In this document: positions 11,259 to 41,918 of the stretch, piece by piece
Position numbering within the stretch: position 1 is the stretch's first letter
How the letters are laid out: the number at the start of each line of letters is the position of its first letter
Assembly (NCBI GenBank): GCA_964360965.1
Contig: CAYHYM010000004.1
Location: 660-64,659 of the forward strand
Length of the DNA: 64,000 nucleotides
Reading direction: 5' to 3'
Source: an uncultured Gammaproteobacteria bacterium
GTDB lineage: Bacteria; Patescibacteriota; Microgenomatia; Daviesbacterales; UBA10151
Notes under the pieces: generated by a model
The model's input: only the letters and a program-made list of their open reading frames with translations
Told to the model about the DNA's origin: nothing
The model's database searches: none
Program-made: the position numbers and the translations under genes

Positions 11259-12266
11259 TTGTATGATCGTGTGAGTATGGAACCGCATCCCATTCCCCAA
11301 AATGTCACCTCGTTTGAGTTTCATCTGGTGGGTGACATGACCTTAAAACAATTTATGTTTTTATCATCAGGTTTGGGGGTATCTTATCTGTTATTTGTTT
11401 TTCTCTCTCCCCAAAACCCGTTTCTGGCCTATCCTTTAATTCTGCTGTTTTCCTTTTTAGGAGTGGCTTTTGCTTTTATGGGCATTGCTGACCGGTCTTT
11501 AGATCATTGGCTTTGGGTTTTCATCAAAGCAGTTTTCTCCCCCACCAAAAGAGTCTGGGGAAAGGCAGGTAAATCGTATGCTCAAAATAACCTGTTTTCC
11601 CAAAGGAGCGCTTTTTTTAACCAGGTAGTCCAAACATCATCCTCCCCTTTTGAGCCAATAACCTCTCCTGTTGCTCAAACAAATGTCCAGCCCCTGCCCA
11701 CAGAAGAGGAGCTGCAAAAAACAGTGACTTTGGCCAGAGAGGCCCAAAGTTTGCAGACTAGAATTATTGAATCAGAAAGACAGCTGGAAAGCATCAAGGT
11801 CACTCCCCAAAATATTTCACCCCAGCAAATTGAGGCAACCTTATCAACCTTACAAAAACTGGTCACTGAAACTTCCGGTATTAAAGAACAACTACTCAGA
11901 GCCACTCACCAAAAAGAGCAGCCAAAGCCTTCTGAAGTCAAAATCACTCCCGCCTCTTTTCAAAGACCAATACAGGCGGTGCTAACTTCCCTGCCCAATG
12001 TGATAAATGGTGTTGTCAAAGATGCTTTGGGCAATTTTTTGGAAGGGGTGGTGGTGGTAATTTATAACAAAGAAGGCCTGCCAGTCAGAGCCTTAAAAAC
12101 CAATAAACTGGGTCAGTTCTCAGGCTCCACCCCCTTGCCAAACAACAGTTACAGAATTGAACTGGAAAAGGATGATCTGTTATTTGATATTTTGCAAATA
12201 GATTTAACAGGCCTGGTTTTACCTGCCATGGAAATTTTATCTAAAAAAAGGGTTTTTCAGACATGA
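11259..12266 (+). CDS. PrgI/VirB3-like T4SS membrane protein with long C-terminal extension
   Basis: N-terminal FEFHLVGDMTLKQFMFLSSGLGVSYLLFVFL followed by a second TM helix, resembling the PrgI/VirB3 family; directly upstream of VirB4. Confidence 0.45.
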   Translation: MYDRVSMEPHPIPQNVTSFEFHLVGDMTLKQFMFLSSGLGVSYLLFVFLSPQNPFLAYPLILLFSFLGVAFAFMGIADRSLDHWLWVFIKAVFSPTKRVWGKAGKSYAQNNLFSQRSAFFNQVVQTSSSPFEPITSPVAQTNVQPLPTEEELQKTVTLAREAQSLQTRIIESERQLESIKVTPQNISPQQIEATLSTLQKLVTETSGIKEQLLRATHQKEQPKPSEVKITPASFQRPIQAVLTSLPNVINGVVKDALGNFLEGVVVVIYNKEGLPVRALKTNKLGQFSGSTPLPNNSYRIELEKDDLLFDILQIDLTGLVLPAMEILSKKRVFQT

Positions 12267-12982
12267 ATACCACCCAGCAACATCTTCAGATGGAGGATAT
12301 AAAAGATGATCTGATGATTTTGAAAAATGGCGGAGCGGCTTTGATTTTACAAAGCTCAGCTTTAAATTTCGGGCTGTTATCAGAGGTTGAACAACACTCA
12401 GTGGTGTTGTCTTTTGCCCAGATGCTCAATTCCCTGTCTTTTCCCATCCAGATTATGATTTATTCCCAAAGGCTCAATATTAACTCATATCTTCATTTGT
12501 TGGAGCGAGCCCGAACAATGCAGAGGAATCCCCTTCTTTCTCAAATGATTGACCGTTATAAAAACTTTGTGACTCAGGTTATTAAAGAAAATGATGTTTT
12601 GGATAAAAAATTTTATGTCATAGCCTATACCTCTTCTTTGGAGATGGGATTTGGTTTTAAAAATAAGGAGGCAAGATTAAAAAGAGCTCAAGCCATACTT
12701 TGGCCAAGAAGGGATCAGCTGATAAGGCAACTGGCCCGAGTGGGGCTAAAAGCAAACCAGCTGACCAGCCTGGAAATGCTGCAGCTTTTATATGATATTT
12801 ATAACGGGGCGCAGCAGGATGTTCTACAAATTCCTCCTGTCAAACTTTCTCCCCCTCCACCTCCCCCAAACCCACCCCGGCCAAATCCAGTTCAAACAGC
12901 AGCTGCGCCACCTTCGCAAACTATTATAAATCAACCTAAAAATCACCCTTTTGTGGTGGAGGAACTGGAGGATAATGTTTAA
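12263..12982 (+). CDS. VirB4-like ATPase, N-terminal domain (separate ORF or frameshifted fragment)
   Basis: Resembles the CagE/TrbE/VirB4 N-terminal domain; Pro-rich C-terminal tail; overlaps the next ORF (ATGTTTAA start/stop overlap). Confidence 0.4.
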   Translation: MNTTQQHLQMEDIKDDLMILKNGGAALILQSSALNFGLLSEVEQHSVVLSFAQMLNSLSFPIQIMIYSQRLNINSYLHLLERARTMQRNPLLSQMIDRYKNFVTQVIKENDVLDKKFYVIAYTSSLEMGFGFKNKEARLKRAQAILWPRRDQLIRQLARVGLKANQLTSLEMLQLLYDIYNGAQQDVLQIPPVKLSPPPPPPNPPRPNPVQTAAAPPSQTIINQPKNHPFVVEELEDNV

Positions 12983-14705
12983 GGGCACACCCCAATTAAC
13001 CCTGGAGGATATCATCGCCCCCCAAGAACTGGAGATTGATTTTAATCATCTTAAAATCAATGACAGATTTTACCGCACCTATTTTATCTCCAGCTACCCG
13101 CGATTTGTGGAGCCTAACTGGCTGGAACCTTTAATTTCTTTTGACCATTCGCTTTTTATCTCCATGTTTGTCTATCCCACCTCATCCAGGGGGGTGCTGG
13201 ATGATCTACGGCGCAAAATTGCCGAGATGGAAGCCACCATAGAAGGTGATGTTGAGCGTGGACGGGAAATTGATCCAACAGTCAGAGTGGCTTTGGAGGA
13301 TGCCCAGTCTTTACAGGAAGAACTGGTTAGGGGGGTGGAGAGATTTTTCCAGTTTGCCCTCTATATCAGCGTGCCTGCCCAAGATAAGGAGGATTTGCAA
13401 AATACCTGCCAGCTTTTTGAATCCACTGCCTCCTCTTTGTCTTTGAGCGCCCAGCCAGCCAGCCTGCAAATGGAAGATGGCTTTAAATCCAGTCTGCCTT
13501 TGGGATCTGACCTGTTGTATCTGACCCATAATATGGACACCCCAGCTCTCTCCACCACTTTTCCTTTTGCTTCGTCGGAGCTGACAGCCAATGAGGGAGT
13601 GATGTATGGCATCAATGCGCATAATGACTCCCTGATTCTTTTTGACAGGTTTTCTTTAGAGAATGCGAATTCAGTGGTGTTTGCCAAATCCGGCGCGGGA
13701 AAATCATATTTTGTTAAACTGGAAATTTTAAGGTCTTTAATGTTTGGCACGGAAATTTTGGTGATTGATCCTGAGAATGAATATTTAAACCTGTGCCAGG
13801 CAGTGGGAGGCGAATATATTAACTTTTCCGCCACCTCTGCTGTTAAGATCAATCCTTTTGATCTGTCTTTAAGCTTATCTCCTGAGGAAAATGAGCTGGG
13901 CAGAAAGATATTATCTTTGACCGCCTTTTTAAAACTGGTGTTGGGCCAGCTAAACCCCCAGGAGGCGGCCATTTTGGATCGGGCTTTAAAACAAACCTAC
14001 AGGTTAAAAGGCATCACTGATGACCCTAAAACCCAAATTCAGCCCCAGATAAGCACCCCTTTAATGGAGGACCTTTATAAAATACTCATCGGTATTGAAG
14101 AAAAACCGGCTCTGGATCTGGCAGCACGCTTAGAAAGATTTATCAAAGGCTCGCTGACCGGTATTTTCTCCTCTCACTCAAACATCAATCTGTCCTCCTC
14201 TTTCACTGTTTTTTCCATCCGGAATCTGGCAGACCAGCTGCGGCCTTTGGCCATATTTATGATCCTGGAATATATCTGGACTAAAATACGCTCACAGCTT
14301 AAAAAAAGAATCCTGGTGGTTGATGAAGCCTGGTATTTGATGAGAAATGAGGATTCGGCCAATTTTCTGGTGGATATTGCCAAAAGAGCCCGTAAGTATT
14401 TTTTGGGACTGACCACCATCACCCAGGATGTGGAGGATTTTTTAGGTACTGACCGGGGCAAAGAAATCATTGCCAATTCCTCCATTCAGGTACTTCTTAA
14501 ACAAGCCCCATCATCCATTGAAAAAGTGGGGGGGACATTTAATCTGTCAGAGGGAGAAAAAAGGCTGCTTTTATCAGAAGGGGTGGGAGAGGGACTCTTT
14601 TTTGCCGGCAATACTCATGTGGCCATGAGAGTGGTGGCCTCACCAGAAGAACACAAATTAATTACCACCAGTCCGCAGGAAATATTGGCAAGACAAAACA
14701 TTTAG
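12951..14705 (+). CDS. VirB4/TrbE/PrgJ-like T4SS ATPase (C-terminal two-thirds)
   Basis: Walker A AKSGAGKSYF, Walker B LVVDEAWYLM, and the surrounding VirB4-type conserved blocks. Confidence 0.75.
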   Translation: MWWRNWRIMFKGTPQLTLEDIIAPQELEIDFNHLKINDRFYRTYFISSYPRFVEPNWLEPLISFDHSLFISMFVYPTSSRGVLDDLRRKIAEMEATIEGDVERGREIDPTVRVALEDAQSLQEELVRGVERFFQFALYISVPAQDKEDLQNTCQLFESTASSLSLSAQPASLQMEDGFKSSLPLGSDLLYLTHNMDTPALSTTFPFASSELTANEGVMYGINAHNDSLILFDRFSLENANSVVFAKSGAGKSYFVKLEILRSLMFGTEILVIDPENEYLNLCQAVGGEYINFSATSAVKINPFDLSLSLSPEENELGRKILSLTAFLKLVLGQLNPQEAAILDRALKQTYRLKGITDDPKTQIQPQISTPLMEDLYKILIGIEEKPALDLAARLERFIKGSLTGIFSSHSNINLSSSFTVFSIRNLADQLRPLAIFMILEYIWTKIRSQLKKRILVVDEAWYLMRNEDSANFLVDIAKRARKYFLGLTTITQDVEDFLGTDRGKEIIANSSIQVLLKQAPSSIEKVGGTFNLSEGEKRLLLSEGVGEGLFFAGNTHVAMRVVASPEEHKLITTSPQEILARQNI

Positions 14706-16716: not shown

Positions 16717-17163
16717 ATGAAAAAAGTAGTTATAGTTTTTATAATCATCTTTGCTATTATATCCATAACCAGAATTATATCCATAAACAGATCTGTTTTT
16801 CTAAAACCAGAACAGCTACCCACTGTTGCACCAGAACAATTAAAAATTATCTCCACCAACCCCCACCCCCTGGATGAGGCAACCATTCTACCCACCCAAA
16901 ATATTGAATTTACTTTTAATAAACCCCTGTTTAGAAGCCAGTTTAAACACAAGTTTGATCCGGACATTGAACATGAGGTAGAAGTTATTGACGGCCGGGA
17001 TAAAGAGTTTGGACAAACCTTCAAAATAGTTTTTAAAAAACCACTGGAACTGGGCCTGGGATATGCTTTATTTGTATTTACCAACACTAAAACAGAGGGG
17101 GGTCTATTTTTAGATAAAGAGTATGTTTTCCATTTTCAAACTATTAAATACAAAGGCTTTTAA
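16717..17163 (+). CDS. small membrane-anchored hypothetical protein
   Basis: N-terminal TM helix, no recognisable motifs. Confidence 0.3.
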   Translation: MKKVVIVFIIIFAIISITRIISINRSVFLKPEQLPTVAPEQLKIISTNPHPLDEATILPTQNIEFTFNKPLFRSQFKHKFDPDIEHEVEVIDGRDKEFGQTFKIVFKKPLELGLGYALFVFTNTKTEGGLFLDKEYVFHFQTIKYKGF

Positions 17164-18335
17164 GAAAGCTTTACCGGCATCAGGATATATTCCAAACCCT
17201 CAACTCCCACCGGCCGGATCAGGCAGGCTGACAAGGATCCGGAAAAATTAAGGGTTATTTTTGAAGAAGGCGCGTTTGATATAGCATCAATTAAAAATCT
17301 GGCATTAAAGGCAATGGTTAACCCGTCACCTGAAACATCAGCTTCAATTTCATTTTGCTGGCTGCCCAACTCTTTAGCAGAGGAGCTCAATACCATTTTA
17401 TCTTTTTCCAGTTTAAGCACAATAATATTGGCTTCGTTTTTGGCAAATACCGCCGCCAGTTTGACAGCCACCAGCATCTGCTCTTTGTTAATGATGGCAG
17501 TTGTTTGAATTTGGGTGGGGATAATCTTCTCCCAGGAGGGGAATTGTCCTTCTATCAACCTTGAGGAAATGATGGTTTCTCCGATATGAAAGATGATCTG
17601 ATTTTGGCTGGAGATGTCTTTAATAACCACCTCATCAACTCCCTCCTCTGAAATGATTTTTAAAACCTCTTCCAAAGTTTTTTTGGGTATCAGGCTTCTA
17701 AACCCTTTGACGGAGTTTATCCCGAGCGGCTTGTCCTGAGATTTGTCGAAGGACTTGTCCTGAGATTTGTCGAAGGAAGTCAAGGGACTCAGGGCAAGCT
17801 GTATTTGCCTGTGGGCCAGCCTAAAACCGTCAGTGGCCACAAAATCAAGCTTACCAGCGCTGCTTTGGGTTAACACTCCTGTTAAGGTAGGCCTTCCTTC
17901 ATCGGTGGCCGCAGCATATAAAATCTGGGCGCAGGAGTTGAGCATATTCTTGGGCAAACTTATGCCTTCACCCCCTCCCACAGGAATTACCGGAAATTCA
18001 GATGAGGATCCTGCTGAAATCGTGGCCTGGAATTTTCCCGCACTAACAATTAAGCTGTTTTGATTTGTGGAAATGTCGATTTTTGGCTCTTTTAAAGAGG
18101 TTACTACCTCGAGGATGGTTTTGGCAGGAACCACAATCTCACCAGGCTCTTGAATTTGCGCCGGGACAAATTTAATCACCCCAATTTCTAAATTGGTGGC
18201 AGATAACCTGACCTTAGACCCCTCTGTGGTAAAAAGGATATTTTCCAGTATAGGGAGTGTTGATCTGATACCTGTTGATCTGACAACTGTTTGTAAGGGT
18301 GGAAGTAAGTCTTGTTGTAATATAGTAAACTTCAT
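17160..18335 (-). CDS. dnaN: DNA polymerase III beta sliding clamp, carrying an in-frame repeat insertion
   Basis: N-terminal MKFTILQQDLL...ATNLE and C-terminal IAFNARFLIDAI motifs; length about 16 aa over typical because of a tandem 24-nt repeat. Confidence 0.85.
   Translation of the reverse strand: MKFTILQQDLLPPLQTVVRSTGIRSTLPILENILFTTEGSKVRLSATNLEIGVIKFVPAQIQEPGEIVVPAKTILEVVTSLKEPKIDISTNQNSLIVSAGKFQATISAGSSSEFPVIPVGGGEGISLPKNMLNSCAQILYAAATDEGRPTLTGVLTQSSAGKLDFVATDGFRLAHRQIQLALSPLTSFDKSQDKSFDKSQDKPLGINSVKGFRSLIPKKTLEEVLKIISEEGVDEVVIKDISSQNQIIFHIGETIISSRLIEGQFPSWEKIIPTQIQTTAIINKEQMLVAVKLAAVFAKNEANIIVLKLEKDKMVLSSSAKELGSQQNEIEADVSGDGLTIAFNARFLIDAISNAPSSKITLNFSGSLSACLIRPVGVEGLEYILMPVKLS
17730..17777. 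repeat. 2 x 24-nt perfect tandem repeat (cttgtcctgagatttgtcgaagga) inside dnaN, within a GC-rich patch about 17715..17800
   Basis: Direct reading; encodes SFDKSQDKSFDKSQDK in frame. Reverse complement carries the CCTTCGAC...CTCAGG core seen in other GC-rich elements. Confidence 0.85.
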
Positions 18336-18781
18336 GGTTTTTTAGCAGTTATAAACTTTTGTATTTCCTCTTCGGTAACTTTTATCAATCTAAAATTAAC
18401 CCTTCCCTCTGTTATCAGGTTTTTAATATGTTTTTCTTCTACTGTCAAGTCCCCTAATCCTGATTTAACTTCTATAAAATCTATTTTTTGATTATTTTTA
18501 ATGCCAATAAAATCAATTGGCCAGCCTAAAGGAATAATCCGGTCATAATCATAACGCAGCTCAGCGTATATTAACAGTTCAGCCATTTTTCCTTTTTGAG
18601 GGTTAATAGATCCTTGAATAGATTGCAGTATTTTACCTGGTAAATCCTGTATAATTTTGTAAATTTCTATAAAATCAGTAGTTGTTTGGGGAAGGGATTT
18701 TTGGTGTAATCTTCCTAAAAGATAAGCTACTACAATTGCTGATAAAATAATAATAGCTAAAACCAAGTTAAAGTTATCCAC
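18332..18781 (-). CDS. membrane-anchored PD-(D/E)xK-like putative nuclease between dnaA and dnaN
   Basis: N-terminal TM helix; D...(I)DFIEVKSG motif resembling a PD-(D/E)xK core; 4-nt overlap with the dnaN start. Confidence 0.3.
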   Translation of the reverse strand: MDNFNLVLAIIILSAIVVAYLLGRLHQKSLPQTTTDFIEIYKIIQDLPGKILQSIQGSINPQKGKMAELLIYAELRYDYDRIIPLGWPIDFIGIKNNQKIDFIEVKSGLGDLTVEEKHIKNLITEGRVNFRLIKVTEEEIQKFITAKKP

Positions 18782-18935
18782 TATTATGTTCGATTATACT
18801 ACAATTTAATAATAATAGTAGTAAATAATATAGTTGGTGGATATGTTGAAAAGCCTAAAAATGATGCTGGAGATTCGCATAAAATTTGTGTTGAAAGTAG
18901 GTTGATTTCTTGTTGATAAGTTGTGGAAAAGTGAC
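18782..18935. promoter_or_regulatory. candidate oriC / DNA-unwinding region between dnaA and the downstream gene
   Basis: Very AT-rich spacer followed by DnaA boxes TGTGGAAAA (18922..18930) and the dyad TTATCCGGTGGATAA (18936..18950) at the dnaA 3' end. Confidence 0.45.
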
Positions 18936-20267
18936 TTATCCGGTGGATAAATTATTTTTGACTTCCCCCAGTATCCGCTGGACATCTTTGTCAGTGTCTG
19001 CCAGTTTTTTTATTTTATCCCTCCCATGCATGACAGTGGTATGGTCCCTGTTGCCTAAAATTTGTCCTATTTTTTCAACTGTTAAATTTAGGTGCTCGCT
19101 TAAGATAAACATAGTTATATGTCTTGGTAGAACCAACTCTTTTTGTCTTCTTGATCCGATCAAATCTTTTTGGCTTAAATTAAAGTAATCGCAAATAGTT
19201 GTTAAAACAAGTTTTGGGTCTACTTTTAGATTATTTTTGGGAGTTGTTTGTAAATGCAGGCTGATATTTTCGGTGGTTGGGGGTAAGTTCTGGGTCTTTA
19301 AAATCTGCAAAATCTGAACAAGCCGCCCCTCCAGCTCTCTGATGTTTGTATTATATGATGAGGCCAAAAGCTGTAGCGCTTCCTCTGATAAAACCGCTCC
19401 CTGCTGCAAACATTTGGCGCGCAGTATGGCAACTCTGGTGTCAAAATCAGGCGGCTGGATATCAATCATCAGCCCTCCTGCAAAGCGTGATTTTAGCCTG
19501 TCCTCAAGTTTTGCTATCTCATTGGGAGAGCGATCTGATGTTAAAATAACCTGGGAATTTTTTGAAATTAGCTCATTAAATGTGTGGAAAAACTCTTCCT
19601 GTGTTCCCTCTCGTCCTGAAAAAAACTGGATATCATCTATCAGTAAAACATCCAGGGAGCGGTATTTGGCACGCAGAGCACCCATCTTGTGTGTTTGTAT
19701 TGCTTCAACATAATCGTTCATAAATTTTTCAGATGGAGAGTAGATAATTTTGATGTGTGGTTTTTTGTCAAGGATGGCGTTGCCAATGGCAAGCATCAGG
19801 TGGGTTTTGCCCACCCCTGTGCCGCCATAAATAAAAAGAGGATTGTAAGATAAGCCTGGATTTTGAGCCACAGCCAAAGCTGCCGCATATGCCACATTAT
19901 TGGATAACCCTACCACAAAATTTTCTAAGGTGTATTTGGGATTAAGCGAGTGGGAGGCAACAGGCTCAATAATCTGGAAAAAATCCTCCTCTTTTTGGTC
20001 AGAAAATTTCTCCAACATCCTCACAGTTAAATCAATCTTAACCTTTTGGCCTAAAAGCTTTTCAAAGGTGCGCTCAATTAACTCCAGGTGCCTTTGGCTT
20101 AAAGTTTCTTTGATAAAGGCGTTATGGGCAGACAGAGTGGCAATTCCGTTGTTAAGTGATTGTAGGGCGGTTTTTTGGAAAAAGGTTTTAAAGTTGGCAG
20201 CAGAGACCTGCGGCTTGATGCCCTCTAAAAATTTATGCCAGAGCTTTAAGTTGTCCATGTTGTCCAT
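18936..20267 (-). CDS. dnaA: chromosomal replication initiator DnaA
   Basis: AAA+ Walker A GGTGVGKTHL, DnaA box-binding C-terminal helix-turn-helix region; canonical context next to dnaN and rpmH. Confidence 0.9.
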   Translation of the reverse strand: MDNMDNLKLWHKFLEGIKPQVSAANFKTFFQKTALQSLNNGIATLSAHNAFIKETLSQRHLELIERTFEKLLGQKVKIDLTVRMLEKFSDQKEEDFFQIIEPVASHSLNPKYTLENFVVGLSNNVAYAAALAVAQNPGLSYNPLFIYGGTGVGKTHLMLAIGNAILDKKPHIKIIYSPSEKFMNDYVEAIQTHKMGALRAKYRSLDVLLIDDIQFFSGREGTQEEFFHTFNELISKNSQVILTSDRSPNEIAKLEDRLKSRFAGGLMIDIQPPDFDTRVAILRAKCLQQGAVLSEEALQLLASSYNTNIRELEGRLVQILQILKTQNLPPTTENISLHLQTTPKNNLKVDPKLVLTTICDYFNLSQKDLIGSRRQKELVLPRHITMFILSEHLNLTVEKIGQILGNRDHTTVMHGRDKIKKLADTDKDVQRILGEVKNNLSTG

Positions 20268-32664: not shown

Positions 32665-33062
32665 TTAATCTATTTTAACAGAGTGCTCTTTTAGCCATTT
32701 GGAGATTTGTTCAACTGTTAAATTGCCATTGTCTACTCTAACTGCAAACTCTACTTCTTCTTTATGTTGATTTATTAATTTATACTCATTTTTTTAAGGA
32801 ATAAACCAGCTGAAGTTAAAGCGGCGCGTTTGTTGCCATCTACAAAGGGATGATTTTTTAAAAGTGACTGTAGTAGGGCTGCAGCTTTGTCAAAAATGGA
32901 AATATATAAATATTCGCCTCCAAATGTAGCTTGTGGTCTAGCTACCGCTGATTCTACCAAACCCATGTCCCTGGTTCCTAAAGAACCGCCAAATCTTTTT
33001 ACCATTTGATCGTGAATAAATAGAACCTGTTCTATTGTGAGAAAAATAATTTTTGTTTTCAC
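32665..33062 (-). pseudogene. doc: Doc (Fic-family) toxin, frameshifted at an A7 homopolymer
   Basis: Fic motif HPFVDGNKR in the 95-aa ORF 32775..33062; the -1 frame after the A-run (32789..32795) continues KNEYKLINQHKEEVEFAVRVDNGNLTVEQISKWLKEHSVKID, a typical Doc C-terminus. Confidence 0.6.
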
Positions 33063-33295
33063 CTATGGGAGAGTTCTTGTAAGACGTCTTTGTGATCTTC
33101 AATAAACTGATCCACCATTTTGGCGAATCTTACATCTACACCAGGTATCTTGATTTTCTTTTGTGGAATTAAGGTAAGACCCTGATTTGTTTCTTTCCAC
33201 TCAACCTTTGACCCATCCCGTATAGAAAGCTGGTGGGCATAGGCTTTAGGTACAGTAACTGCTAAAGAGTTACCATTTTTAAATACTTTTCTCAT
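33059..33295 (-). CDS. AbrB/MazE-fold antitoxin (Phd-like partner of Doc)
   Basis: N-terminal KVFKNGNSLAVTVPK swapped-hairpin motif; 4-nt overlap with doc. Confidence 0.6.
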   Translation of the reverse strand: MRKVFKNGNSLAVTVPKAYAHQLSIRDGSKVEWKETNQGLTLIPQKKIKIPGVDVRFAKMVDQFIEDHKDVLQELSHR

Positions 33296-33362: not shown

Positions 33363-34238
33363 GTGATTACTAAATCAAAACAGGAATATATTAAAAATGC
33401 TATTTATCTTTCCTATACTTCTTTAAATGATTTTTTGAAGTGTCCCGGGAGCTATTATTTAAAAAACATCTACAGAGATCCCAAAACCGGCTTTAGGATG
33501 CAGATTGCCTCACCTTATCTTTCTTTAGGTTCAACAGTCCATGATGCTATAAAGTGGCATATAGAAATGGCAGGCCCGCTTCGACTCGCGTCGAGCGAGG
33601 CGAGACAGGTAACATATGAACAATTGGAGGGAAAATTTAGAAATCTATGGCTAAAATATACCGGTAAAAGAGGGGGTTTCTCCACCAAAGAAGATGAAGC
33701 AAGTTTTGGTAAGCGCGGCCTGTTAATGTTGGAGAATTTTTTTAGAAATGCCAAAAACTTGGAAGATAAACATCACAGTATAGAATTTCCTAAATACCCA
33801 TTATTGGATAATGTAATTTTAATGGGGAATTTTGACTTTATTGGGGAAAAAGAGGATCAGACCTTACATGTTGTGGATTTTAAAACCGGAGCAAATGATG
33901 AAAAAGATCCAATTCAGCTTTATATTTATGCCATTTTGGCAGAGGCTAATTTGGAAAAATCAGTTTCTTCAGCTTCATTTTGGTATTTGGACAGGGAAGA
34001 TAAACCGCGTGATATAGTTTTAGATCCGCTGGAACCAAAACTGGAATGGTTAAAAGAAAAAGCCACAGAGTTAAAAAAGGCAATTGGGGAGGGAATGTGG
34101 GTTTGTCCTTCGACTCGCTCCGCTCGCTCAGGATTATGTAGAGATTGTAGAGACTATCATGCCATTTTGGATGGAAAAGGTGAATTTCAATTTACTGATT
34201 ATAGATACAAGAAAGATGTTTATTACCTTCCCAAATAG
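33363..34238 (+). CDS. Cas4/RecB-like PD-(D/E)xK nuclease with 4-Cys cluster (orphan, no CRISPR nearby)
   Basis: N-terminal Cys (CPGSYY), DF...VDFKTG...QLYIY nuclease motifs, C-terminal C...C..C; two short GC-rich in-frame insertions. Confidence 0.55.
   Translation: MITKSKQEYIKNAIYLSYTSLNDFLKCPGSYYLKNIYRDPKTGFRMQIASPYLSLGSTVHDAIKWHIEMAGPLRLASSEARQVTYEQLEGKFRNLWLKYTGKRGGFSTKEDEASFGKRGLLMLENFFRNAKNLEDKHHSIEFPKYPLLDNVILMGNFDFIGEKEDQTLHVVDFKTGANDEKDPIQLYIYAILAEANLEKSVSSASFWYLDREDKPRDIVLDPLEPKLEWLKEKATELKKAIGEGMWVCPSTRSARSGLCRDCRDYHAILDGKGEFQFTDYRYKKDVYYLPK
33570..33612. repeat. short GC-rich element inside the Cas4-like gene
   Basis: ggcaggcccgcttcgactcgcgtcgagcgaggcgagacagg, about 70% GC in an AT-rich gene. 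Confidence 0.55.
34106..34133. repeat. 28-nt family-2 GC-rich element (TCCTTCGACTCGCTCCGCTCGCTCAGGA) inside the Cas4-like gene
   Basis: Identical ends to the rnpA insertion. Confidence 0.7.
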
Positions 34239-34728: not shown

Positions 34729-35562
34729 TCAGCTAAGTTGATGGACCATGTCTTCTACCATTTCTCTAACTCTTGCTTGCTGAGGATAAGTTGAATCTTT
34801 ATCTGAGACTGCTTTATCGCTTGTTAAAGCTACAAAGCTGTGTTCAATATATCTACGGTCTATAGATTGCAGATAACCTGCTTGATGGCAATAACTAAAT
34901 CCATCTTGGGTAATATTACCATCTTTATGCCTAACAGTAACCTCTTGACCACTTGCTGTAGCAGTTTTTCTAGTAGGGATCCATCTTAAAAACTTTTGGC
35001 CCAGATAATTATCTCTAACTAAAAAGCCTTTCCTAAACTCATATAAAAATTGGCCTACATTTTGAGCTGTTGTTTCATTTAGTGTGCCTGATTCAAGATT
35101 TAAGATAGTAGTATCATGAAGATGCCAATTGGATAAAACATCCTGTATTCTATTTCTACCTGCTACATCCGCTACCTTGGCAATTGCTACGTTATCAGAA
35201 AATTGAATAGAGTATCTTAGGAGATCTTCTAAAGTCTTTGTTGGCAGCATGTCCCTTCTAACAGCTTTGGACATAGCCCAGAGAGGAAGAAATTCTACTT
35301 TAAGTCTTCCAGTACCATGCATATTTTCCTGATACTCGTAAGGGGTAATATGATATCTTTGTTGTAAATCAAGCACCTCATCTTCTACTATTTTTAGAGC
35401 TACAGCCACTATAAAAAGTTTACCCAAAGAAGCAGCAGGTTGTTTCTCATGAGAATTGTATTCAGTAACTACTTGGTCAGTTTTTAAATTCTGTTGGAAG
35501 AAAGCAGTATGTAACTGACCATAAGTTTGTATACCACTTGCTTCTTTAATTGAGCCTGTCAT
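34729..35562 (-). CDS. class A beta-lactamase-like serine hydrolase
   Basis: SxxK (ASLGK) and SDN (FSDNVA) motifs in the correct order and spacing. Confidence 0.45.
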   Translation of the reverse strand: MTGSIKEASGIQTYGQLHTAFFQQNLKTDQVVTEYNSHEKQPAASLGKLFIVAVALKIVEDEVLDLQQRYHITPYEYQENMHGTGRLKVEFLPLWAMSKAVRRDMLPTKTLEDLLRYSIQFSDNVAIAKVADVAGRNRIQDVLSNWHLHDTTILNLESGTLNETTAQNVGQFLYEFRKGFLVRDNYLGQKFLRWIPTRKTATASGQEVTVRHKDGNITQDGFSYCHQAGYLQSIDRRYIEHSFVALTSDKAVSDKDSTYPQQARVREMVEDMVHQLS

Positions 35563-35627: not shown

Positions 35628-36068
35628 TTATTCTCCGGCTAATTTAAAGCCCGGCTTAGGGTACCAATCATCAAAAGAAAATATCAAATTTGTTTCAAAC
35701 TTATTGGCAGTTGCAGCCACAATTGCGTCAAAAATAGTATTTTGCTTAGATTGAGACCTTGTTTCAAAAATAATCGCTGCCTTAGTTTGAATTTCTAAGT
35801 TTACGTACTCCACAGTAAAAGCTCCTGCCAGATATTGTTTATTTATTAATTTTGCTTTATCAGGTAGGTTTTTAGCACGAGATAAGGCTGTAATTGTTTC
35901 CAGAATAGCAGTATTAGGATAAATTACTTGAAATCTTTTTAAGTTGAGCCACTGACTGATTCTCTTTGCTTTTTGGTGATTAGCATCTTGCTTATCTGCT
36001 AAAGCTATTAAGGAATCCGCATCTCCTATAATAATATTGTTCACTTTTGTCTTTTCTCTCCACCCCAA
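35628..36068 (-). CDS. PIN-domain (VapC-like) toxin
   Basis: IIGDADSLIAL and DAIVAATA acidic PIN motifs. Confidence 0.55.
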   Translation of the reverse strand: MGWREKTKVNNIIIGDADSLIALADKQDANHQKAKRISQWLNLKRFQVIYPNTAILETITALSRAKNLPDKAKLINKQYLAGAFTVEYVNLEIQTKAAIIFETRSQSKQNTIFDAIVAATANKFETNLIFSFDDWYPKPGFKLAGE

Positions 36069-36325
36069 GCGTAGTAGTCGTGATTTATAGATACATCCGT
36101 AGGAGAACCTTGTTGGCTGGGCATTTGTTCTGCCATCTTAGCCAGATCAAGTAAAGCCTGGGCATTGGATTTAGGGTGATTAATCTCCAAGCCCTTACTC
36201 AGGGCCTCTCTTATAATTTCAGCTTCAGCCTTATTCTTATCTTGAGCTATTAAGCTAATTCTTCTTCTGGTATCATCCGGGATGTGAACACTGATTCTTT
36301 GCATATGTATTACATCATACATCAT
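36041..36325 (-). CDS. ribbon-helix-helix (CopG/VapB-like) antitoxin
   Basis: ISVHIPDDTRRRISLIAQDKNKAEAEIIREAL RHH pattern; overlaps the PIN gene. Confidence 0.5.
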   Translation of the reverse strand: MMYDVIHMQRISVHIPDDTRRRISLIAQDKNKAEAEIIREALSKGLEINHPKSNAQALLDLAKMAEQMPSQQGSPTDVSINHDYYAWGGEKRQK

Positions 36326-36570: not shown

Positions 36571-36648
36571 GCTATTTTAGAGGGGAAAGGTGAGTTTCAG
36601 TTTACAGACCACCGCTACAAAAAAGATATTTATTTCTTGAAACGTTAA
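36571..36648. repeat. remnant copy of the 3' end of the Cas4-like nuclease gene
   Basis: Translates to AILEGKGEFQFTDHRYKKDIYFLKR*, against AILDGKGEFQFTDYRYKKDVYYLPK* at 34171..34238. Confidence 0.7.
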
Positions 36649-38186
36649 TAAATAGGCTCGAGGTCTTTTTCTACAACTTTTTCTATTAAAGTTTGTCCAG
36701 GGAAGATATAAATAAGTCTGATTTTGCCTGAACCGACCTTGTTCAGTTCGTCAATAATAGTTGTAACTTTACTTGACTTAATATCAGTAAAAGGTTTGGC
36801 GACGGAATGGTATCTGCTGATAAAACCTTCTAGTTCGGAAGCTGCCAGAATCACCACTACATTTTTATCCAGAAGTGTGGTCATTTCGCCTTTAAGCTTA
36901 CCTTGTTCTCGTAATAGGTTTTCAATTACTTGATAAAATTGGTTAAAATCTTGGGTGTTTGATTTACAGTTAATAATAAACTGTTGGACCTTTTCTTGTG
37001 TCTCAGAATTTACTGCGATAGACCCCTCTAGGATGTGACCTTCAAAGGCTGAAGTACTACTGTTGTAGACAGAAGGTAACCCAAGGAGAATAGTATGTGC
37101 TACCTCAATTTGGTGTTCCGCAAGCTCTGCTAACACGCTTCTTACTGCTTGTTTTGGGTCAATATAGTCAATTCCAGGTTCTTGTTCTAGTAATTTGCCA
37201 ACGCCTCCGTGCATAGCGGTGGAGCTAAAAGTGATTATTGGGGGTATTCTTCTCTCCCTAGGTAGTGCTTTCGCGCGAGCCATTAATTCAGGCATATGAG
37301 CTTTTAAACTTTGGCCATATAAATTAGTGTCAATTGAGCCTGATAGTTTTGGATCAGAGATCGGATAAATCTCAGGAAACGAGCGATCGCCAAAATAGTT
37401 CTTCCCCAAGGCTGTAATTAGAGAGTTCATCAGGGCTTCGGTGAAATGGGCAGTATCACGACCGCTATCTCCACCAACAACAATAATTGGTCTTCTAGCA
37501 ATCACTCTTGTTTCTTCTGGTTTACTAATATCCGGAGTAATGGTTTGTATTGGTAGTCTTTGAATACCCTTCAGGTAGCGTCTAATATCAAATCCAACGT
37601 AAAATCTAGGGTCTCCTGAAGAAGAAAATACTGTATCCTCATAAGGATAATCTGCTCCAGTAATTAGGTCACGATCAAAAAAATGCCTTATGGGAATATC
37701 AGTTTGGGTAAATGGGTTAACGGTGCCATACTCAAGACCTAGCTTGGTCACATCAGCACGCTTTAGATCAGACTCACTAACATCTAAGTGCTGGGCCAAT
37801 TTGGTAAAGTCTAGCTCTCGATCAGCTCTGGTATGAGTTATAACTAGGGGATAACCAGGAGCTGTTAGGGCATTAGATCTCATAATTCGCCATAGTTCTA
37901 CTCCTTGCTCTCCCTCGAAAATCGCAGCCGCAGCATTTTCTCTTACAGATCTGGGACGGCCTTGATTTTTACCAAAAAAATAATGAACTCCGTATTCAAA
38001 ACGCAAAAGTGGCGGGACTGGAGTTTCTGTATATATCTCATCTCTAATCTCTGCCGGGACATCAAAAATGGTCAGGCAAAGTGAATCAAAATGGCTGGCG
38101 ATTTGAGCCAGTCTTTCCACCACAGGATCGCTTTCTTCAAGGCCAAGTTGCTTTGGGTTAAATCCAACCTGTAATAATTGTTCCAT
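36645..38186 (-). CDS. hypothetical protein with C-terminal Asp/Glu/hydantoin-racemase-superfamily-like domain
   Basis: Blocks IIVVGGDSGRD, FSSTAMHGG and VVILAASELEG resemble the two half-sites of Asp/Glu racemase-type folds (Ser/Thr in place of Cys); weak. Confidence 0.3.
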   Translation of the reverse strand: MEQLLQVGFNPKQLGLEESDPVVERLAQIASHFDSLCLTIFDVPAEIRDEIYTETPVPPLLRFEYGVHYFFGKNQGRPRSVRENAAAAIFEGEQGVELWRIMRSNALTAPGYPLVITHTRADRELDFTKLAQHLDVSESDLKRADVTKLGLEYGTVNPFTQTDIPIRHFFDRDLITGADYPYEDTVFSSSGDPRFYVGFDIRRYLKGIQRLPIQTITPDISKPEETRVIARRPIIVVGGDSGRDTAHFTEALMNSLITALGKNYFGDRSFPEIYPISDPKLSGSIDTNLYGQSLKAHMPELMARAKALPRERRIPPIITFSSTAMHGGVGKLLEQEPGIDYIDPKQAVRSVLAELAEHQIEVAHTILLGLPSVYNSSTSAFEGHILEGSIAVNSETQEKVQQFIINCKSNTQDFNQFYQVIENLLREQGKLKGEMTTLLDKNVVVILAASELEGFISRYHSVAKPFTDIKSSKVTTIIDELNKVGSGKIRLIYIFPGQTLIEKVVEKDLEPIY

Positions 38187-38321
38187 ATATCTATTATCTA
38201 TGTGATAGAGCAGGTATTATACACTATAAGGCTTATTATGTCAAAATGATTAAACTAAGGATTTTTGTGTTTTTAAAACACTTGTTGACATATTGTCATA
38301 CAGATGTGTTATACTTAAGTT

Positions 38322-40052
38322 ATGGCATTAAAAAGAACTACCCTAAGGATAGATGAAGACTTAAAAAAAGATACTCAACAGCGAGCCTTAGAGGAGAATA
38401 CCACTCAACAAGAAATTCTCAATAGAGCTTTAAAGAAATATTTAAGAACTGAGGTTCAGAAAGAGCTTGCTAGGGAAACAGTGGCCGAGCCACAGGAAGT
38501 AACTACAAAAAAGGCTAGTTCGAGTAAACCAGCAGATGTAATTGATTTGATATTTAGCTCACTGGATATCGAAGCCAGGGGTTTTATTAAAAAGGGAGAT
38601 TTGATAGATGCCCTTAATTTTAGAGGAATTCTAGAGGATGACATTAGGATTAAAAATGTCATGGAGGCTTTGAGTAAAACTAATAAAGACGATGATATCC
38701 CCCCCCAAACCTTCCGCAGGATTGTTGGGCCGTACATTACATTAATTGAAAAAGCCCTGACTGGTAGTCTGGTTATCCCCGATTTTAAGAATTTCTGTAG
38801 TTTTATTACTAATCTTTATAATCGCACAATTCAAAACAAAGATGGCGAGGTTTCAGATTACATACCTGAGCTAAAAGGAGTTGACCCAAATAACTATGCT
38901 ATTTCCATTTGTACTATAGACGGACAGAGATTTAATTTGGGAGATTACAATACTCCCTATCTAGCCCAATCTACTGCCAAACCCATAAATTATTGTCTGG
39001 CCTTAGAAGAGCACGGCGAAGAAGTAGTTCATAAAAAGATTGGCAGAGAACCTTTAGGCAAAGGTTTAAATCAGTTGACTCTAAACAGTCAAGGATTGCC
39101 GCATAATCCTTTAAATGGTACAGGAGCAATTATGTCGGCCTCCTTGATTGGCCAAGAACTTTCCCTGGAAGACCGTTTTGAACAGGCTTTAAAGAAATGG
39201 AAGTCGCTTTCCGGAGGAATTAATCCTGGATTTTCAAAATCAGCTTACGATTCAGCTAAACATGTTGCGGATAAAGATCTGGCGCTAGCTTATTTTATGA
39301 GATTGAATCAGTTGTTTTCCAAAGGATCAAATTTAGAAGAATATTTGGACTTTCTGTTTAAATGCTTATCTATTGAAACTACCACTGAAGCTCAAGCAAT
39401 TATTGCTGCCACTTTGGCAAACGCCGGAGTTTGTCCGACCAATGGGGAAGCCGTGTTAAAAATGGAGACTACAAAGAATTGTTTATCTTTGATGTATTCC
39501 TGCGGTATGGAAGATTACTCGTCTGAGTTTGCTTTTGCAATAGGACTTCCTGCTAAAAGCGGTATTTCAGGATCGATTATGATAGTTGTGCCTAATGTGA
39601 TGGGAATTGCGATTTATTCTCCTAGGGTTGATAGTAATGGCAATAGTGTTAAAGGATTAGATTTATGTAATAAATTAATCCAGAGATTTAATTTTCATAA
39701 TTACGATAGCTTAACTAAAAAACTGGATAAAATTGATCCCAGGCTTTTGAAAAATGAAAATAAAATGAGGGGCGTGATGGCTGTTTGTACTGCTGCTTCT
39801 CAGGGAGATCTATATGAGATCCAAAGGTTAGAGGCCTCGGGGGTTGCTTTGGATGAAGGTGATTATGATGCCAGAACCGGCATACATCTGGCAGCCTCGG
39901 AAGGTCACGAAGAGGTAGTTCGCTATTTTATTGAAAGAAGAGTGGATATTAACCCTAAAGACCGTTGGGGTGGGACACCTTTAGCTGATGCCATGAGAGG
40001 TAACCACACTGCGGTAATTGAACTGTTGGAGAAAAATGGAGCCAGGCTATGA
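38322..40052 (+). CDS. glsA: glutaminase with N-terminal RHH-like segment and C-terminal ankyrin repeats
   Basis: YIPELKGVDP...GDYNTPYLAQSTAKPINYCLALE...GREPLG serine-dependent glutaminase blocks; C-terminal ANK repeats (GIHLAASEGHEEVVRYFI...GGTPLADAMRGNH). Confidence 0.75.
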   Translation: MALKRTTLRIDEDLKKDTQQRALEENTTQQEILNRALKKYLRTEVQKELARETVAEPQEVTTKKASSSKPADVIDLIFSSLDIEARGFIKKGDLIDALNFRGILEDDIRIKNVMEALSKTNKDDDIPPQTFRRIVGPYITLIEKALTGSLVIPDFKNFCSFITNLYNRTIQNKDGEVSDYIPELKGVDPNNYAISICTIDGQRFNLGDYNTPYLAQSTAKPINYCLALEEHGEEVVHKKIGREPLGKGLNQLTLNSQGLPHNPLNGTGAIMSASLIGQELSLEDRFEQALKKWKSLSGGINPGFSKSAYDSAKHVADKDLALAYFMRLNQLFSKGSNLEEYLDFLFKCLSIETTTEAQAIIAATLANAGVCPTNGEAVLKMETTKNCLSLMYSCGMEDYSSEFAFAIGLPAKSGISGSIMIVVPNVMGIAIYSPRVDSNGNSVKGLDLCNKLIQRFNFHNYDSLTKKLDKIDPRLLKNENKMRGVMAVCTAASQGDLYEIQRLEASGVALDEGDYDARTGIHLAASEGHEEVVRYFIERRVDINPKDRWGGTPLADAMRGNHTAVIELLEKNGARL

Positions 40053-40354
40053 AAAGTGATATTAAGACAACCGGAGTAATGGCGCTTGACTGGGCAGCGG
40101 CTCAGGGAGATTTGCACGAGATTCAAAGGTTAGTCGCATCCGGCGCAGATTTGAACGAAGGTGATTATGATGGGAGAACCGCAATACATCTGGCAGCCTC
40201 GGAAGGACAGGAAGAAATTGTCAGGTATTTAATTGCGAAAGGTGTAAATATTAATCCTAGGGATCGTTGGGGTGGGACACCTTTAGCTGATGCCATGAGA
40301 GGTAACCACACCAAAGTTATAGAGCTTTTGAAAAAACATAATGCACAGAAATAA
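40049..40354 (+). CDS. stand-alone ankyrin-repeat protein, tandem duplicate of the glutaminase ANK module
   Basis: About 70% identical to the last 95 aa of the upstream ORF; ATGA start/stop overlap. Confidence 0.65.
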   Translation: MKSDIKTTGVMALDWAAAQGDLHEIQRLVASGADLNEGDYDGRTAIHLAASEGQEEIVRYLIAKGVNINPRDRWGGTPLADAMRGNHTKVIELLKKHNAQK

Positions 40355-40365
40355 TCTAATTTCCT

Positions 40366-41466
40366 ATGAATGATAAACAAATTTCTCCTCCCAATAAAAT
40401 AAAAGTTTATGTATTAAACACAGGTGGAACTCTGGGAATGGTGGGTAAACCGCTTCGTCCCGCTAAATCAGCTGCAGAGCTTTTAGAGGGAATTAATACT
40501 CCGCCTGAAGTGGAACTTATCATAGATGATTTTAAGTTTAGGCAGGATTCTACTAATATTTTGCATGCTGAAAGGCTAATGATGGCTAGGCAAATAGCCG
40601 AAAATTATAAAACCCATGATGCTTTTGTCATTATGCACGGGACTGATTCTATGGCAGAAACAGCTGCAGCTTTTTGTATGTTCTTTAAATTATCTTTACA
40701 AAAGCCTTTAATTTTAGTTGGTGCTCAGATGTCTAAAGATGAGCCTGGTTCAGATGTACAACTGCAGTTATCAAATACTTTTAGAGTTGCCAGCGCCTTT
40801 CATAGATATAATATTGTGGGTGTTTATAATGTTTGTATCGGTGATATTTGGGATGGGTCAAGGCTTAGGAAAAGAGCAGAGTCAAATTTCATGGCTTTTT
40901 ACACTCCAGGTCGTCATCCGGTGGCCAGAATTTGGCCTCATATTCACTTTGATGAAGGGTTAAGATATAAAGATCCTGTTTTGGCAGTTCAGGATTTAAA
41001 GATTGATGGTGTGCTAGAGCGTAAAGTAGCTACTTTTAAAGTATCAGCAGATACACCTCCATGGGTAGTAATGGATCAAGTTTTAAAAAATCGCCTCAAA
41101 GGGGTCATTTTAGAGTGTAAAGGTGCAGGAAATATTCCAAATCGTGAATGGGAAGATTATGAAAACGGGACAACTTATTCATGGATTGATGTAATTGCGG
41201 CAGCAACTAAAGCTGGAATCCATGTGGGGATTATTTCACCTTTTGAAGATGGCAGAGTTATCCTAGGTCGTTATGAGCTGGGAGCAGAAGCACTTGAGGC
41301 AGGGGCAATTAGCTTAGAAAGTCTGACTCCAGATATGGCAGATATTAAGTTTAGACAGGCTATTGCTATGTTTCCTACAGATAGAGAAAAAATTCAAGAA
41401 TTTATTTCAACTAATATTATTGGAGAATTACTTACCGGAGCAGAAGATTCTGAGGAATTCATTTAG
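40366..41466 (+). CDS. L-asparaginase
   Basis: N-terminal VLNTGGTLGM and HGTDSMAETAAAF motifs typical of the asparaginase/glutaminase family. Confidence 0.8.
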   Translation: MNDKQISPPNKIKVYVLNTGGTLGMVGKPLRPAKSAAELLEGINTPPEVELIIDDFKFRQDSTNILHAERLMMARQIAENYKTHDAFVIMHGTDSMAETAAAFCMFFKLSLQKPLILVGAQMSKDEPGSDVQLQLSNTFRVASAFHRYNIVGVYNVCIGDIWDGSRLRKRAESNFMAFYTPGRHPVARIWPHIHFDEGLRYKDPVLAVQDLKIDGVLERKVATFKVSADTPPWVVMDQVLKNRLKGVILECKGAGNIPNREWEDYENGTTYSWIDVIAAATKAGIHVGIISPFEDGRVILGRYELGAEALEAGAISLESLTPDMADIKFRQAIAMFPTDREKIQEFISTNIIGELLTGAEDSEEFI

Positions 41467-41654: not shown

Positions 41655-41918
41655 TTAAGAAAGAGTTTGCTGGATGGGTATATCAATTGTTGTCATAAAG
41701 CTGGGACCTTTTTCTTCAGGAACTATTTCATTATGTTTTTTTAAACTGGCAATATATACGCTGATAGCATCTTTAACCATCTCCACAGCTTCTTCCAAAC
41801 TGTTACCTTCTGTGACACATCCTGGCAGAGCAGGTACAATCACCACATACCCACCTTCTTCAGCTGGTTCAAAAATAGCAGTATATTTTAAGATTTTTTG
41901 AGAGATTTTCTTAGCCAT
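41655..41918 (-). CDS. hicB: HicB-family antitoxin (orphaned)
   Basis: About 85% identical to the HicB at 63404..63664; UPF0150-like YxxxFEP...GGY..VP..PGC motif. Confidence 0.6.
   Translation of the reverse strand: MAKKISQKILKYTAIFEPAEEGGYVVIVPALPGCVTEGNSLEEAVEMVKDAISVYIASLKKHNEIVPEEKGPSFMTTIDIPIQQTLS

Follow-up and report, generated by a model that had tools for sequence, protein, structure and literature searches.

The window analysed here, a stretch of 64,000 nucleotides from contig CAYHYM010000004.1, is chromosomal DNA of a bacterium belonging to the candidate phyla radiation (CPR), with dnaA, dnaN, aminoacyl-tRNA synthetase and GroEL genes and a cluster resembling a type IV secretion system (T4SS); the host is an ultra-small groundwater organism whose nearest named relative is Candidatus Curtissbacteria. 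The plus strand carries a three-gene operon, confirmed as open reading frames (ORFs) of 576 aa (38322-40052), 101 aa (40049-40354) and 366 aa (40366-41466), which encode a protein with the fold of kidney-type glutaminase (the GLS-like protein), a free-standing ankyrin-repeat (ANK) protein and an asparaginase. On balance, the asparaginase is probably the sole working amidohydrolase of this operon, and its two partners, the GLS-like protein and the free-standing ANK protein, would have a sensing, scaffolding or regulatory role without catalysis. In such an arrangement the asparaginase would convert asparagine, and possibly glutamine, to the acid and ammonia in the cytoplasm, and the GLS-like protein would no longer hydrolyse L-glutamine. 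Public records label these proteins 'glutaminase' and 'asparaginase'.

The GLS-like protein, assigned by Pfam, by phmmer against the PDB, and by an AlphaFold2 (AF2) model compared with Foldseek, contains a complete Glutaminase domain (PF04960, beta-lactamase-like) at residues 175-461 (38844-39704, plus strand; Pfam E 7e-89, profile positions 1-286 of 286). Alignment with human kidney-type glutaminase (KGA) places its active-site residues Y249/S286/K289/N335/E381/N388/Y414/Y466 opposite Y180/S217/K220/G266/A312/D319/L345/E397. The Ser-x-x-Lys pair (S217, K220) and the Tyr 249 equivalent (Y180) are kept, while Tyr 466, Asn 335, Glu 381, Asn 388 and Tyr 414, that is five residues out of the eight in the active site, are all replaced; in the Asn 335 column, occupied by G266, an asparagine is found shifted by one position, at 265. 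In KGA, N335 and Y414 hold the α-carboxylate of the bound analogue DON (6-diazo-5-oxo-L-norleucine), E381 together with Q285 holds its α-amino group, N388 provides a further contact, and Y466 lies 2.7 Å from Ser 286; the variants Y249A, S286A, K289A and Y466A all had greatly reduced activity (PMC4929687). The initial annotation, made from the letters alone, had called this protein a serine-dependent glutaminase and had singled out the Ser-Lys pair. The pair is present on alignment, though Ser-Lys alone is too narrow a criterion, and the glutaminase assignment has become doubtful with the replacement of Tyr 466 and of four ligand contacts and with the variation of the active site across the clade. 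Along these lines, the protein missed all NCBIfam glutaminase equivalog cut-offs, scoring 236-237 bits against values from 255 (TIGR03814) to 557.

The same sites were followed through 120 homologues, 70 of them canonical (human included) as against 51, besides the query, in a clade of CPR bacteria and DPANN archaea; in the neighbour-joining tree the GLS-like sequences of CPR and DPANN form this one monophyletic clade. Six of the eight active-site columns are invariant in the canonical group (n = 70) and the other two nearly so. In the eroded CPR/DPANN clade, on the other hand, Tyr 466 occurs in none of the 51 members, Asn 388 in one, Asn 335 in three and Tyr 414 in three. Both Ser 286 and Lys 289 are present in 14 members and at least one of them is lost in the remaining 37, with glutamate, alanine or aspartate substituting for the serine and asparagine, threonine or glutamate for the lysine; the Gln 285 column is arginine in 38 members. 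The eight columns fall between the 48th and the 88th percentile of column entropy in the eroded clade, whose proteins keep a mean column identity of 59% over their whole length. Which residues are lost differs by subclade, such that the query's subclade has lost Glu 381 and kept Ser-Lys, and most others show the opposite. This pattern is as expected if catalytic selection was relaxed in the common ancestor and the fold stayed under strong constraint, and because the residue losses differ by subclade while the fold remains constrained, the eroded clade looks, from its sequences, non-catalytic.

The third gene of the operon, which the initial annotation had correctly recognized as an L-asparaginase following the free ANK gene, encodes a type-I/GatD-like enzyme of 366 aa (40366-41466, plus strand) with both Pfam Asparaginase domains (N-terminal E 4e-33, C-terminal E 2e-13). 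Among PDB sequences it comes closest to GatD (1zq1; E 3e-27), followed by AnsA and the Vibrio cholerae enzyme (E 1e-20 to 1e-22). The catalytic set of this asparaginase-like protein (ASPARAGINASE) is intact, comprising T19, T22, D61, S62, T93, D94, Q121 and K169; among 120 homologues the threonine of the TGGT motif, D61-S62, T93-D94, Q121 and K169 vary hardly or not at all (T93, D94 and K169 are strictly invariant), and the nucleophile T19 is kept in 96 of 110. The protein does not reach the TIGR00519 type-I cut-off (144 vs 260.5 bits), nor does it qualify as GatD, with no GatD_N domain (366 vs ≈ 440 aa), a score of 119 bits against 310-324, and no gatE in the window. In its subfamily the classical lid loop is replaced by a conserved GxPLRPAKSAxEL segment, and all named members of the family belong to CPR or DPANN; by these sequence features the enzyme belongs to a subfamily of its own, confined to the two groups. 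More distant members (52-63% identity), found in Kaiserbacteria, Nomurabacteria and an unclassified bacterium, have neither GLS nor ANK genes beside them. Since standalone members exist in other CPR genomes, the asparaginase is presumably autonomous and, judging from its catalytic residues, apparently a working enzyme, with the GLS-like/ANK pair as an add-on.

The free ANK protein of 101 aa (40049-40354, plus strand; Pfam Ank_4 E 4e-23, Ank E 6e-18) is encoded between the two. Its start overlaps the stop of the GLS-like gene as ATGA, with GGAG 7 nt 5' of that ATG, and it resembles the repeats fused to the GLS-like protein (residues 491-574, 39792-40043, plus strand; Pfam Ank_2/Ank_4 E ≈ 1e-10, with the Ank_4 match at E 5e-11), which align with the ANK region of KGA, so both regions are ankyrin repeats by profile, as first annotated. 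The fused and the free repeats share 71% identity at the protein and ≈ 75% at the DNA level (225 of 298 nt). The free ANK gene had been described as a near-duplicate within a tandem duplication. It is indeed a paralogue with the ATGA overlap, but a recent local tandem duplication was rejected: in a neighbour-joining tree over 14 genomes the fused repeats form one clade and the free ones another, the latter sharing the motif CWAA(A/S)QGD. A free-ANK gene also lies behind canonical GLS genes in Margulisbacteria, in a Rickettsiales metagenome-assembled genome (MAG) and in a Pseudomonadales MAG. Because the two clades are separate and the pair occurs in canonical GLS lineages as well, it is an ancient, conserved one, older than the loss of the active site. 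Within a genome, fused and free repeats are generally 46-60% identical in the tree comparison, with 70% and 67% in the two Curtissbacteria, which may reflect partial gene conversion. ANK:ANK pairing has been reported for human KGA; by analogy, the free ANK protein would engage the fused ANK repeats of the GLS-like protein.

A possible regulatory role is hinted at by the N-terminal extension of the GLS-like protein (residues 1-49, 38322-38468, plus strand), which resembles a ribbon-helix-helix (RHH)/VapB DNA-binding motif and is followed by a low-complexity linker reaching to about residue 72. It matches VapB_antitoxin with E 0.002 (18.3 bits vs a cut-off of 23.4; profile positions 1-44 of 47) and RHH_1 with E 0.009 (16.4 vs 20.5 bits), both matches covering the greater part of the profile, and the segment is strongly conserved only in the four nearest relatives (P0001-P0004). 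Members of another eroded subclade (P0043, P0056) have a winged helix-turn-helix-like N-terminus (residues ≈ 1-70) with sub-threshold HTH_Crp_2 and HVO_A0114 matches. Two independent DNA-binding-like fusions in the eroded clade would fit a sensor or regulator role. The operon is separated from a divergent gene on the minus strand, which encodes a 513-aa YbaK/ProX-like and Asp/Glu-racemase-like protein, by a control region of 135 bp (38187-38321), surveyed by promoter scan, sequence reading and inverted-repeat search. On the minus strand a sigma-70-like promoter with perfect -35 and -10 elements precedes the 513-aa gene, the count of promoter-like sites in the region being no higher than expected from shuffled sequence. 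The plus strand has TTGACA at 38285-38290 and an extended -10 element, TGnTATACT, at 38307-38315, which ends 6 nt before the ATG of the GLS-like gene, such that the gene start appears to be of the leaderless type, without a Shine-Dalgarno sequence. A palindrome GTGTTTT/AAAACAC (GTGTTTTtAAAACAC) is located at 38267-38281 and a second one, TGACAtatTGTCA, at 38286-38298; both lie at or just before the -35 element and are candidate operators. The RHH-like N-terminus might let the GLS-like protein bind these palindromes in the lineage of the window, and such binding would co-regulate the operon and the neighbouring YbaK/racemase-like gene and provide autoregulation of the GLS-like gene.

Several observations weigh against a non-catalytic GLS-like partner of an active asparaginase. 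The lineage of the window, unlike most of the eroded clade, still has Y180, S217 and K220, and its GLS-like protein may retain residual or altered hydrolase activity. The RHH assignment stays below the Pfam thresholds, and the AF2 monomer draws one long helix in this region and no β-ribbon. As for the asparaginase, 11 of 110 homologues (P0121-P0240) have alanine or methionine in place of the nucleophile threonine (T19), so that some members of the subfamily may be inactive, and the enzyme lacks the classical type-I lid-loop tyrosine, its loop reading VGKPLRPAKSAAEL. Finally, all trees are of the neighbour-joining type only. The first of these points leads to the foremost alternative, namely that the GLS-like protein is a serine hydrolase with a changed substrate and that the operon encodes two different amidohydrolases. 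Conceivable substrates include amides that have no free α-amino acid moiety, D-isomers, amides of the γ-glutamyl type or from peptidoglycan, and side chains of proteins. The query and its five nearest relatives keep not only the tyrosine, serine and lysine but also the oxyanion-hole segment GLPAKSG, and new conserved pocket motifs (DxDRALAYF, LEFLWxC, DYSSE) could mean remodelling and not decay. These motifs, however, vary among subclades, and with the serine or the lysine lost in 37 of the 51 clade members, whose proteins otherwise remain ≈ 59% identical, Ser-Lys chemistry is not the function conserved clade-wide; furthermore, the position of Tyr 466, whose exchange for alanine largely abolishes activity in KGA, is taken by glutamate. 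A changed substrate is regarded as unlikely, though it deserves consideration before all other alternatives.

Turning back to the preferred reading, that of an asparaginase with non-catalytic partners, the gene set recurs as a unit. The order GLS-like, free ANK, asparaginase, on one strand and with spacers of -14 to +41 nt, is found in six named CPR/DPANN lineages; carriers comprise a second Curtissbacteria genome, two Aenigmatarchaeota, two Saccharibacteria, Magasanikbacteria, Staskawiczbacteria and an Iainarchaeum. In one archaeal locus (L091) the order is the same, with a D-2-hydroxyacid dehydrogenase gene (6916-7836) inserted between free ANK and asparaginase, and 15 further GLS/asparaginase pairs probably lie on a common contig, to judge by the identical lengths of the longest contigs. 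For the GLS-like protein of the window the nearest named homologue, in Candidatus Curtissbacteria, is 78% identical, and a copy of its gene matching 1730 of 1731 nt is present on another metagenome contig. The asparaginase of the window is 75-79% identical to archaeal and other CPR copies (75-78% to the archaeal ones); in the comparison with archaea, ANK reaches 60-70% and the GLS-like protein 51-64%. Identity of this degree between domains is far above what vertical descent would lead one to expect, and for this reason the operon has, judging by these sequence comparisons, evidently moved horizontally between CPR and DPANN. It is among the few metabolic gene sets clearly exchanged by the two groups, and points to a shared need concerning asparagine, glutamine and ammonia.

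Flanking genes are not conserved between lineages, and the contextual anchors are limited to associations with gat genes and with the 513-aa gene. In the fetched flanks, gat genes accompany four of 11 eroded-clade loci, whereas the 72 canonical GLS loci have none (Fisher p 1.8e-4, a value that ignores kinship): gatCAB near the cassette in L003 (4823-7964), gatE and gatD near it in L051 (1765-3666 and 11301-12611), gatD directly upstream of it in L091 (3630-4970), and gatD 3.6 kb upstream in L092 (67-1407). In L091 the distance from gatD to the GLS-like gene is 30 nt. The association, uncorrected for phylogeny or for small genome size, is suggestive.

The 513-aa gene (36645-38186, minus strand), divergent from the operon, gave no significant match by Pfam or by sequence and profile searches against the PDB, and relatives emerged from the fold search alone. 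Its tRNA_edit match is sub-threshold (18.1 vs 25.5 bits), and three homologues have a precomputed PF04073 match. In the AF2 model, whose predicted local distance difference test (pLDDT) value is only 70, the N-terminal half resembles ProX/YbaK proteins (2z0k, 1dbu, 8huz; Foldseek probability 1.0, target-normalized TM-score (TMt) 0.52-0.63) and the C-terminal half Asp/Glu racemases (2zsk, 3s81, 5elm, 3ojc; probability 1.0, TMt 0.60-0.69), both in searches against the PDB. Invariant FSSxAMHG and LLGLPS motifs follow the strands where racemases bear their catalytic cysteines; from the position of these motifs in the model, the catalytic cysteine pair is probably absent. The earlier description of this neighbour as racemase-like is therefore upheld at the level of the fold, and its link to asparaginase by neighbourhood, while a racemase match in Pfam is missing. 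The family is rare, with six database matches of ≈ 520 aa, and asparaginase-family genes adjoin every member with known context (6/6). Besides the window, members (their own coordinates in brackets) are found in a Saccharibacteria cassette (L006, 6310-7953), in two metagenome loci where two or three asparaginase paralogues are accompanied by a 550-aa ParA/CbiA-like ATPase (L088, 2759-4351; L089, 2767-4344), beside an 805-aa tandem double asparaginase (L093, 3825-5423), and beside a 166-aa asparaginase fragment in L094-L096 (L094, 2264-3937).

These associations bring up an improbable alternative, which is compatible with an asparaginase accompanied by non-catalytic partners, that the module serves tRNA-dependent amidation or the handling of aminoacyl-tRNA and not the breakdown of free amino acids; the asparaginase, the 513-aa protein and the GLS-like/ANK pair would then work together, on or beside Asp-tRNA(Asn) or Glu-tRNA(Gln) and Gat amidotransferases. 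That GatD is the best solved relative of the asparaginase, the gat genes near four of 11 loci, and the constant adjacency of the YbaK/racemase-like family to asparaginase genes would all be in keeping with it. The asparaginase, however, lacks GatD_N and misses the GatD cut-offs, seven of the 11 loci have no gat gene nearby, the small genomes of CPR and DPANN raise the chance of adjacency, the loci are not phylogenetically independent, and the YbaK assignment itself draws on fold and sub-threshold sequence evidence. A further reading, also unlikely, is that CPR and DPANN exchange an undescribed asparaginase-centred complex in which a dead GLS protein, in some cases fused to a DNA-binding domain, and its ANK paralogue sense amide nitrogen and control the GatD-like asparaginase, with the 513-aa protein as the link to aminoacyl-tRNA or tRNA-dependent asparagine and glutamine synthesis. 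If this were true, ultra-small symbionts would have a new kind of accessory to an amide metabolism that is coupled to translation.

The initial annotation had combined the genes into a deamidation module, with a genuine glutaminase and an asparaginase scavenging glutamine and asparagine and releasing ammonia. The strong Pfam glutaminase match, the presence of Ser-Lys and the competent appearance of the asparaginase speak for it, and the two activities can pair: in a Myxococcales MAG (L074; 7827-9908, 11865-13685) a canonical GLS-ANK gene is situated ≈ 2 kb upstream of an asparaginase-ANK fusion with the architecture of animal ASPG, which means that both 'animal-type' ANK amidohydrolases co-occur in one bacterium. 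In the window, though, the five replaced residues include Tyr 466 and three that hold the α-carboxylate and α-amino groups, the NCBIfam cut-offs (236 bits vs 255-557) are missed, and active-site variation extends through the entire clade. A genuine glutaminase beside the asparaginase is thus quite improbable, and one enzyme, the asparaginase, with non-catalytic partners is the more likely composition.

As to architecture, the domain order of animal kidney-type glutaminase that had been proposed for the GLS-like protein was borne out and proved even more complete, by virtue of an EF-hand-like N-domain (EF-hand_14, PF17959; residues 75-153, 38544-38780, plus strand; Pfam E 4.8e-12) that aligns with the N-domain of KGA. 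Among solved structures the nearest are human KGA (5uqe, 8gwr) and GLS2, both close to full length, with E values of 1e-123 to 1e-120 (phmmer against the PDB), and the alignment with KGA, gapless through the catalytic domain, spans the EF-hand-like domain to the last ANK repeat. Superposition of the AF2 model (pLDDT 84) on GAC from human and mouse yielded TMt values of 0.92-0.95, and Foldseek gave 503 aligned columns with KGA at 39-40% identity. Within the EF-hand-like domain, a loop at residues 82-93 (38565-38600) comes near to a canonical Ca2+-binding EF-hand; its consensus across the clade is D-x-E-S-x-G-Y-I-x-K-x-D, several relatives match EF-hand_6 or EF-hand_7, and the protein of the window has alanine and arginine at positions 4 and 5, where the consensus has serine and a variable residue.

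The layout is nevertheless not unusual for a prokaryote, contrary to what the term 'eukaryote-like' had implied. In a collection of one genome per GTDB species, relatives with EF-hand, GLS and ANK domains were confirmed by tblastn in no fewer than 364 species of prokaryotes, which belong to Bacteroidota, Myxococcota, Acidobacteriota, Planctomycetota, Nitrospirota, Margulisbacteria, Proteobacteria, CPR and DPANN; in each of the 80 loci kept, a single ORF encodes both the GLS domain and ANK. Given this distribution, the layout is no sign of eukaryotic origin. A eukaryote-to-bacterium transfer was rejected on the same grounds, human and protist sequences nesting within the canonical clade amid bacterial ones in the neighbour-joining tree. 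Glutaminases are reported to have gained their ANK repeats at an early evolutionary stage, and the layout to be of bacterial ancestry (Pasquali et al. 2017, as cited in PMC13142944). It is consequently barely credible that the protein is a eukaryote-derived, host-targeting effector like the ankyrin effectors of intracellular bacteria: apart from sharing the architecture of animal KGA, its ANK repeats match the Legionella Dot/Icm Ank models only weakly (28 bits vs a cut-off of 600), and no secretion signal is evident. Signal peptides, already noted as not obvious, were not evident either, the N-termini being RHH-like in the GLS-like protein and of the cytoplasmic type-I kind in the asparaginase.

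Further genes of the window may be mentioned briefly. Upstream of the cassette are dnaN and dnaA, with a T4SS-like cluster (PrgI-like, TraG/VirB4-like ATPase) just upstream (17160-20267 and 11259-14705, respectively); dnaN/dnaA coincide with the minimum of the cumulative GC skew, so this is probably the region of the replication origin. Around the cassette there are toxin-antitoxin-type genes, namely Fic with a MazE-like gene (32778-33295), PIN with RHH (35628-36325) and a lone HicB-like antitoxin gene (41655-41918), as well as a class-A β-lactamase-like gene (34729-35562) and a PD-(D/E)XK nuclease gene (33363-34238), and the surroundings look like a variable chromosomal region. Cargo of a defence system or mobile plasmid was rejected, PADLOC giving generic ANK matches only and plasmid matches reaching at most 31% identity. 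The genes of 381 aa that lie downstream both in the window and in L091 proved unrelated to each other. Neither Rfam families nor tRNAs were detected in the window.

As a drug target, kidney-type glutaminase has been studied intensively, and what its ANK and EF-hand-like domains do is unclear. The eroded clade, in which the fold and the accessory domains are constrained and the active site is free, and which always goes together with a free ANK paralogue and an asparaginase, offers a route to non-catalytic roles of GLS proteins such as oligomerization, sensing and partner binding. Annotation of the clade as 'glutaminase' would, in turn, inflate the glutaminolysis inferred in metabolic reconstructions. 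The host-dependent symbiont envisaged at the outset is probable for a CPR bacterium. While neither the component families nor the GLS-ANK architecture of bacteria is new, the eroded clade, the CPR/DPANN operon, the DNA-binding-like fusions and the association of asparaginase genes with the YbaK/racemase-like family appear to be undescribed; a search of the searchable literature on the operon or on a CPR/DPANN pseudo-glutaminase returned nothing relevant.

Compared with known systems, the asparaginase shares with type-I asparaginases (E. coli AnsA, 2p2d; V. cholerae, 2ocd) and with the GatD domain (1zq1, 2d6f) the two-domain fold, the threonine nucleophile, the Thr-Asp-Lys set and a cytoplasmic location without signal peptide, but it is only ≈ 25-30% identical and has neither GatD_N nor the lid-loop tyrosine. 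Animal ASPG (60-kDa lysophospholipase; 9s7z, 5dnc) likewise associates an asparaginase with ANK repeats; in the window, however, the ANK protein is encoded by a separate upstream gene, in the tree a paralogue of the GLS ANK repeats, and the sequence match to ASPG (E 1e-14) is weaker than that to GatD or AnsA. The viral pseudo-glutamine-amidotransferases (PMC7605207) differ in fold and biology, and the partnership described here is deduced from operon structure only; the two cases have in common a conserved fold with eroded catalytic residues, kept under strong constraint and coupled genetically to an active amidohydrolase. The canonical bacterial GLS proteins (Bacteroidota, Myxococcota, Planctomycetota, Margulisbacteria and others) have the same EF-hand and ANK architecture and, in Margulisbacteria, the Rickettsiales MAG and the Pseudomonadales MAG (marine), the same free ANK gene directly downstream; they differ in their all but uniform active-site columns and in that a CPR-type asparaginase follows in none of the 72 canonical loci. 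Human KGA/GLS and GLS2 (5uqe, 8gwr, 8szl), finally, have in common with the GLS-like protein the EF-hand-like N-domain, the serine-glutaminase fold, three ANK repeats, the Ser-x-x-Lys pair and Tyr 249, at 39-40% identity over ≈ 500 residues, the TMt of 0.92-0.95 referring to the N-terminal and catalytic domains present in GAC. The protein of the window, on the other hand, has Tyr 466, Asn 335, Glu 381, Asn 388 and Tyr 414 changed to Glu, Gly, Ala, Asp and Leu, carries an RHH-like N-terminus in place of a mitochondrial presequence, and is encoded in an operon together with a free ANK protein and an asparaginase.

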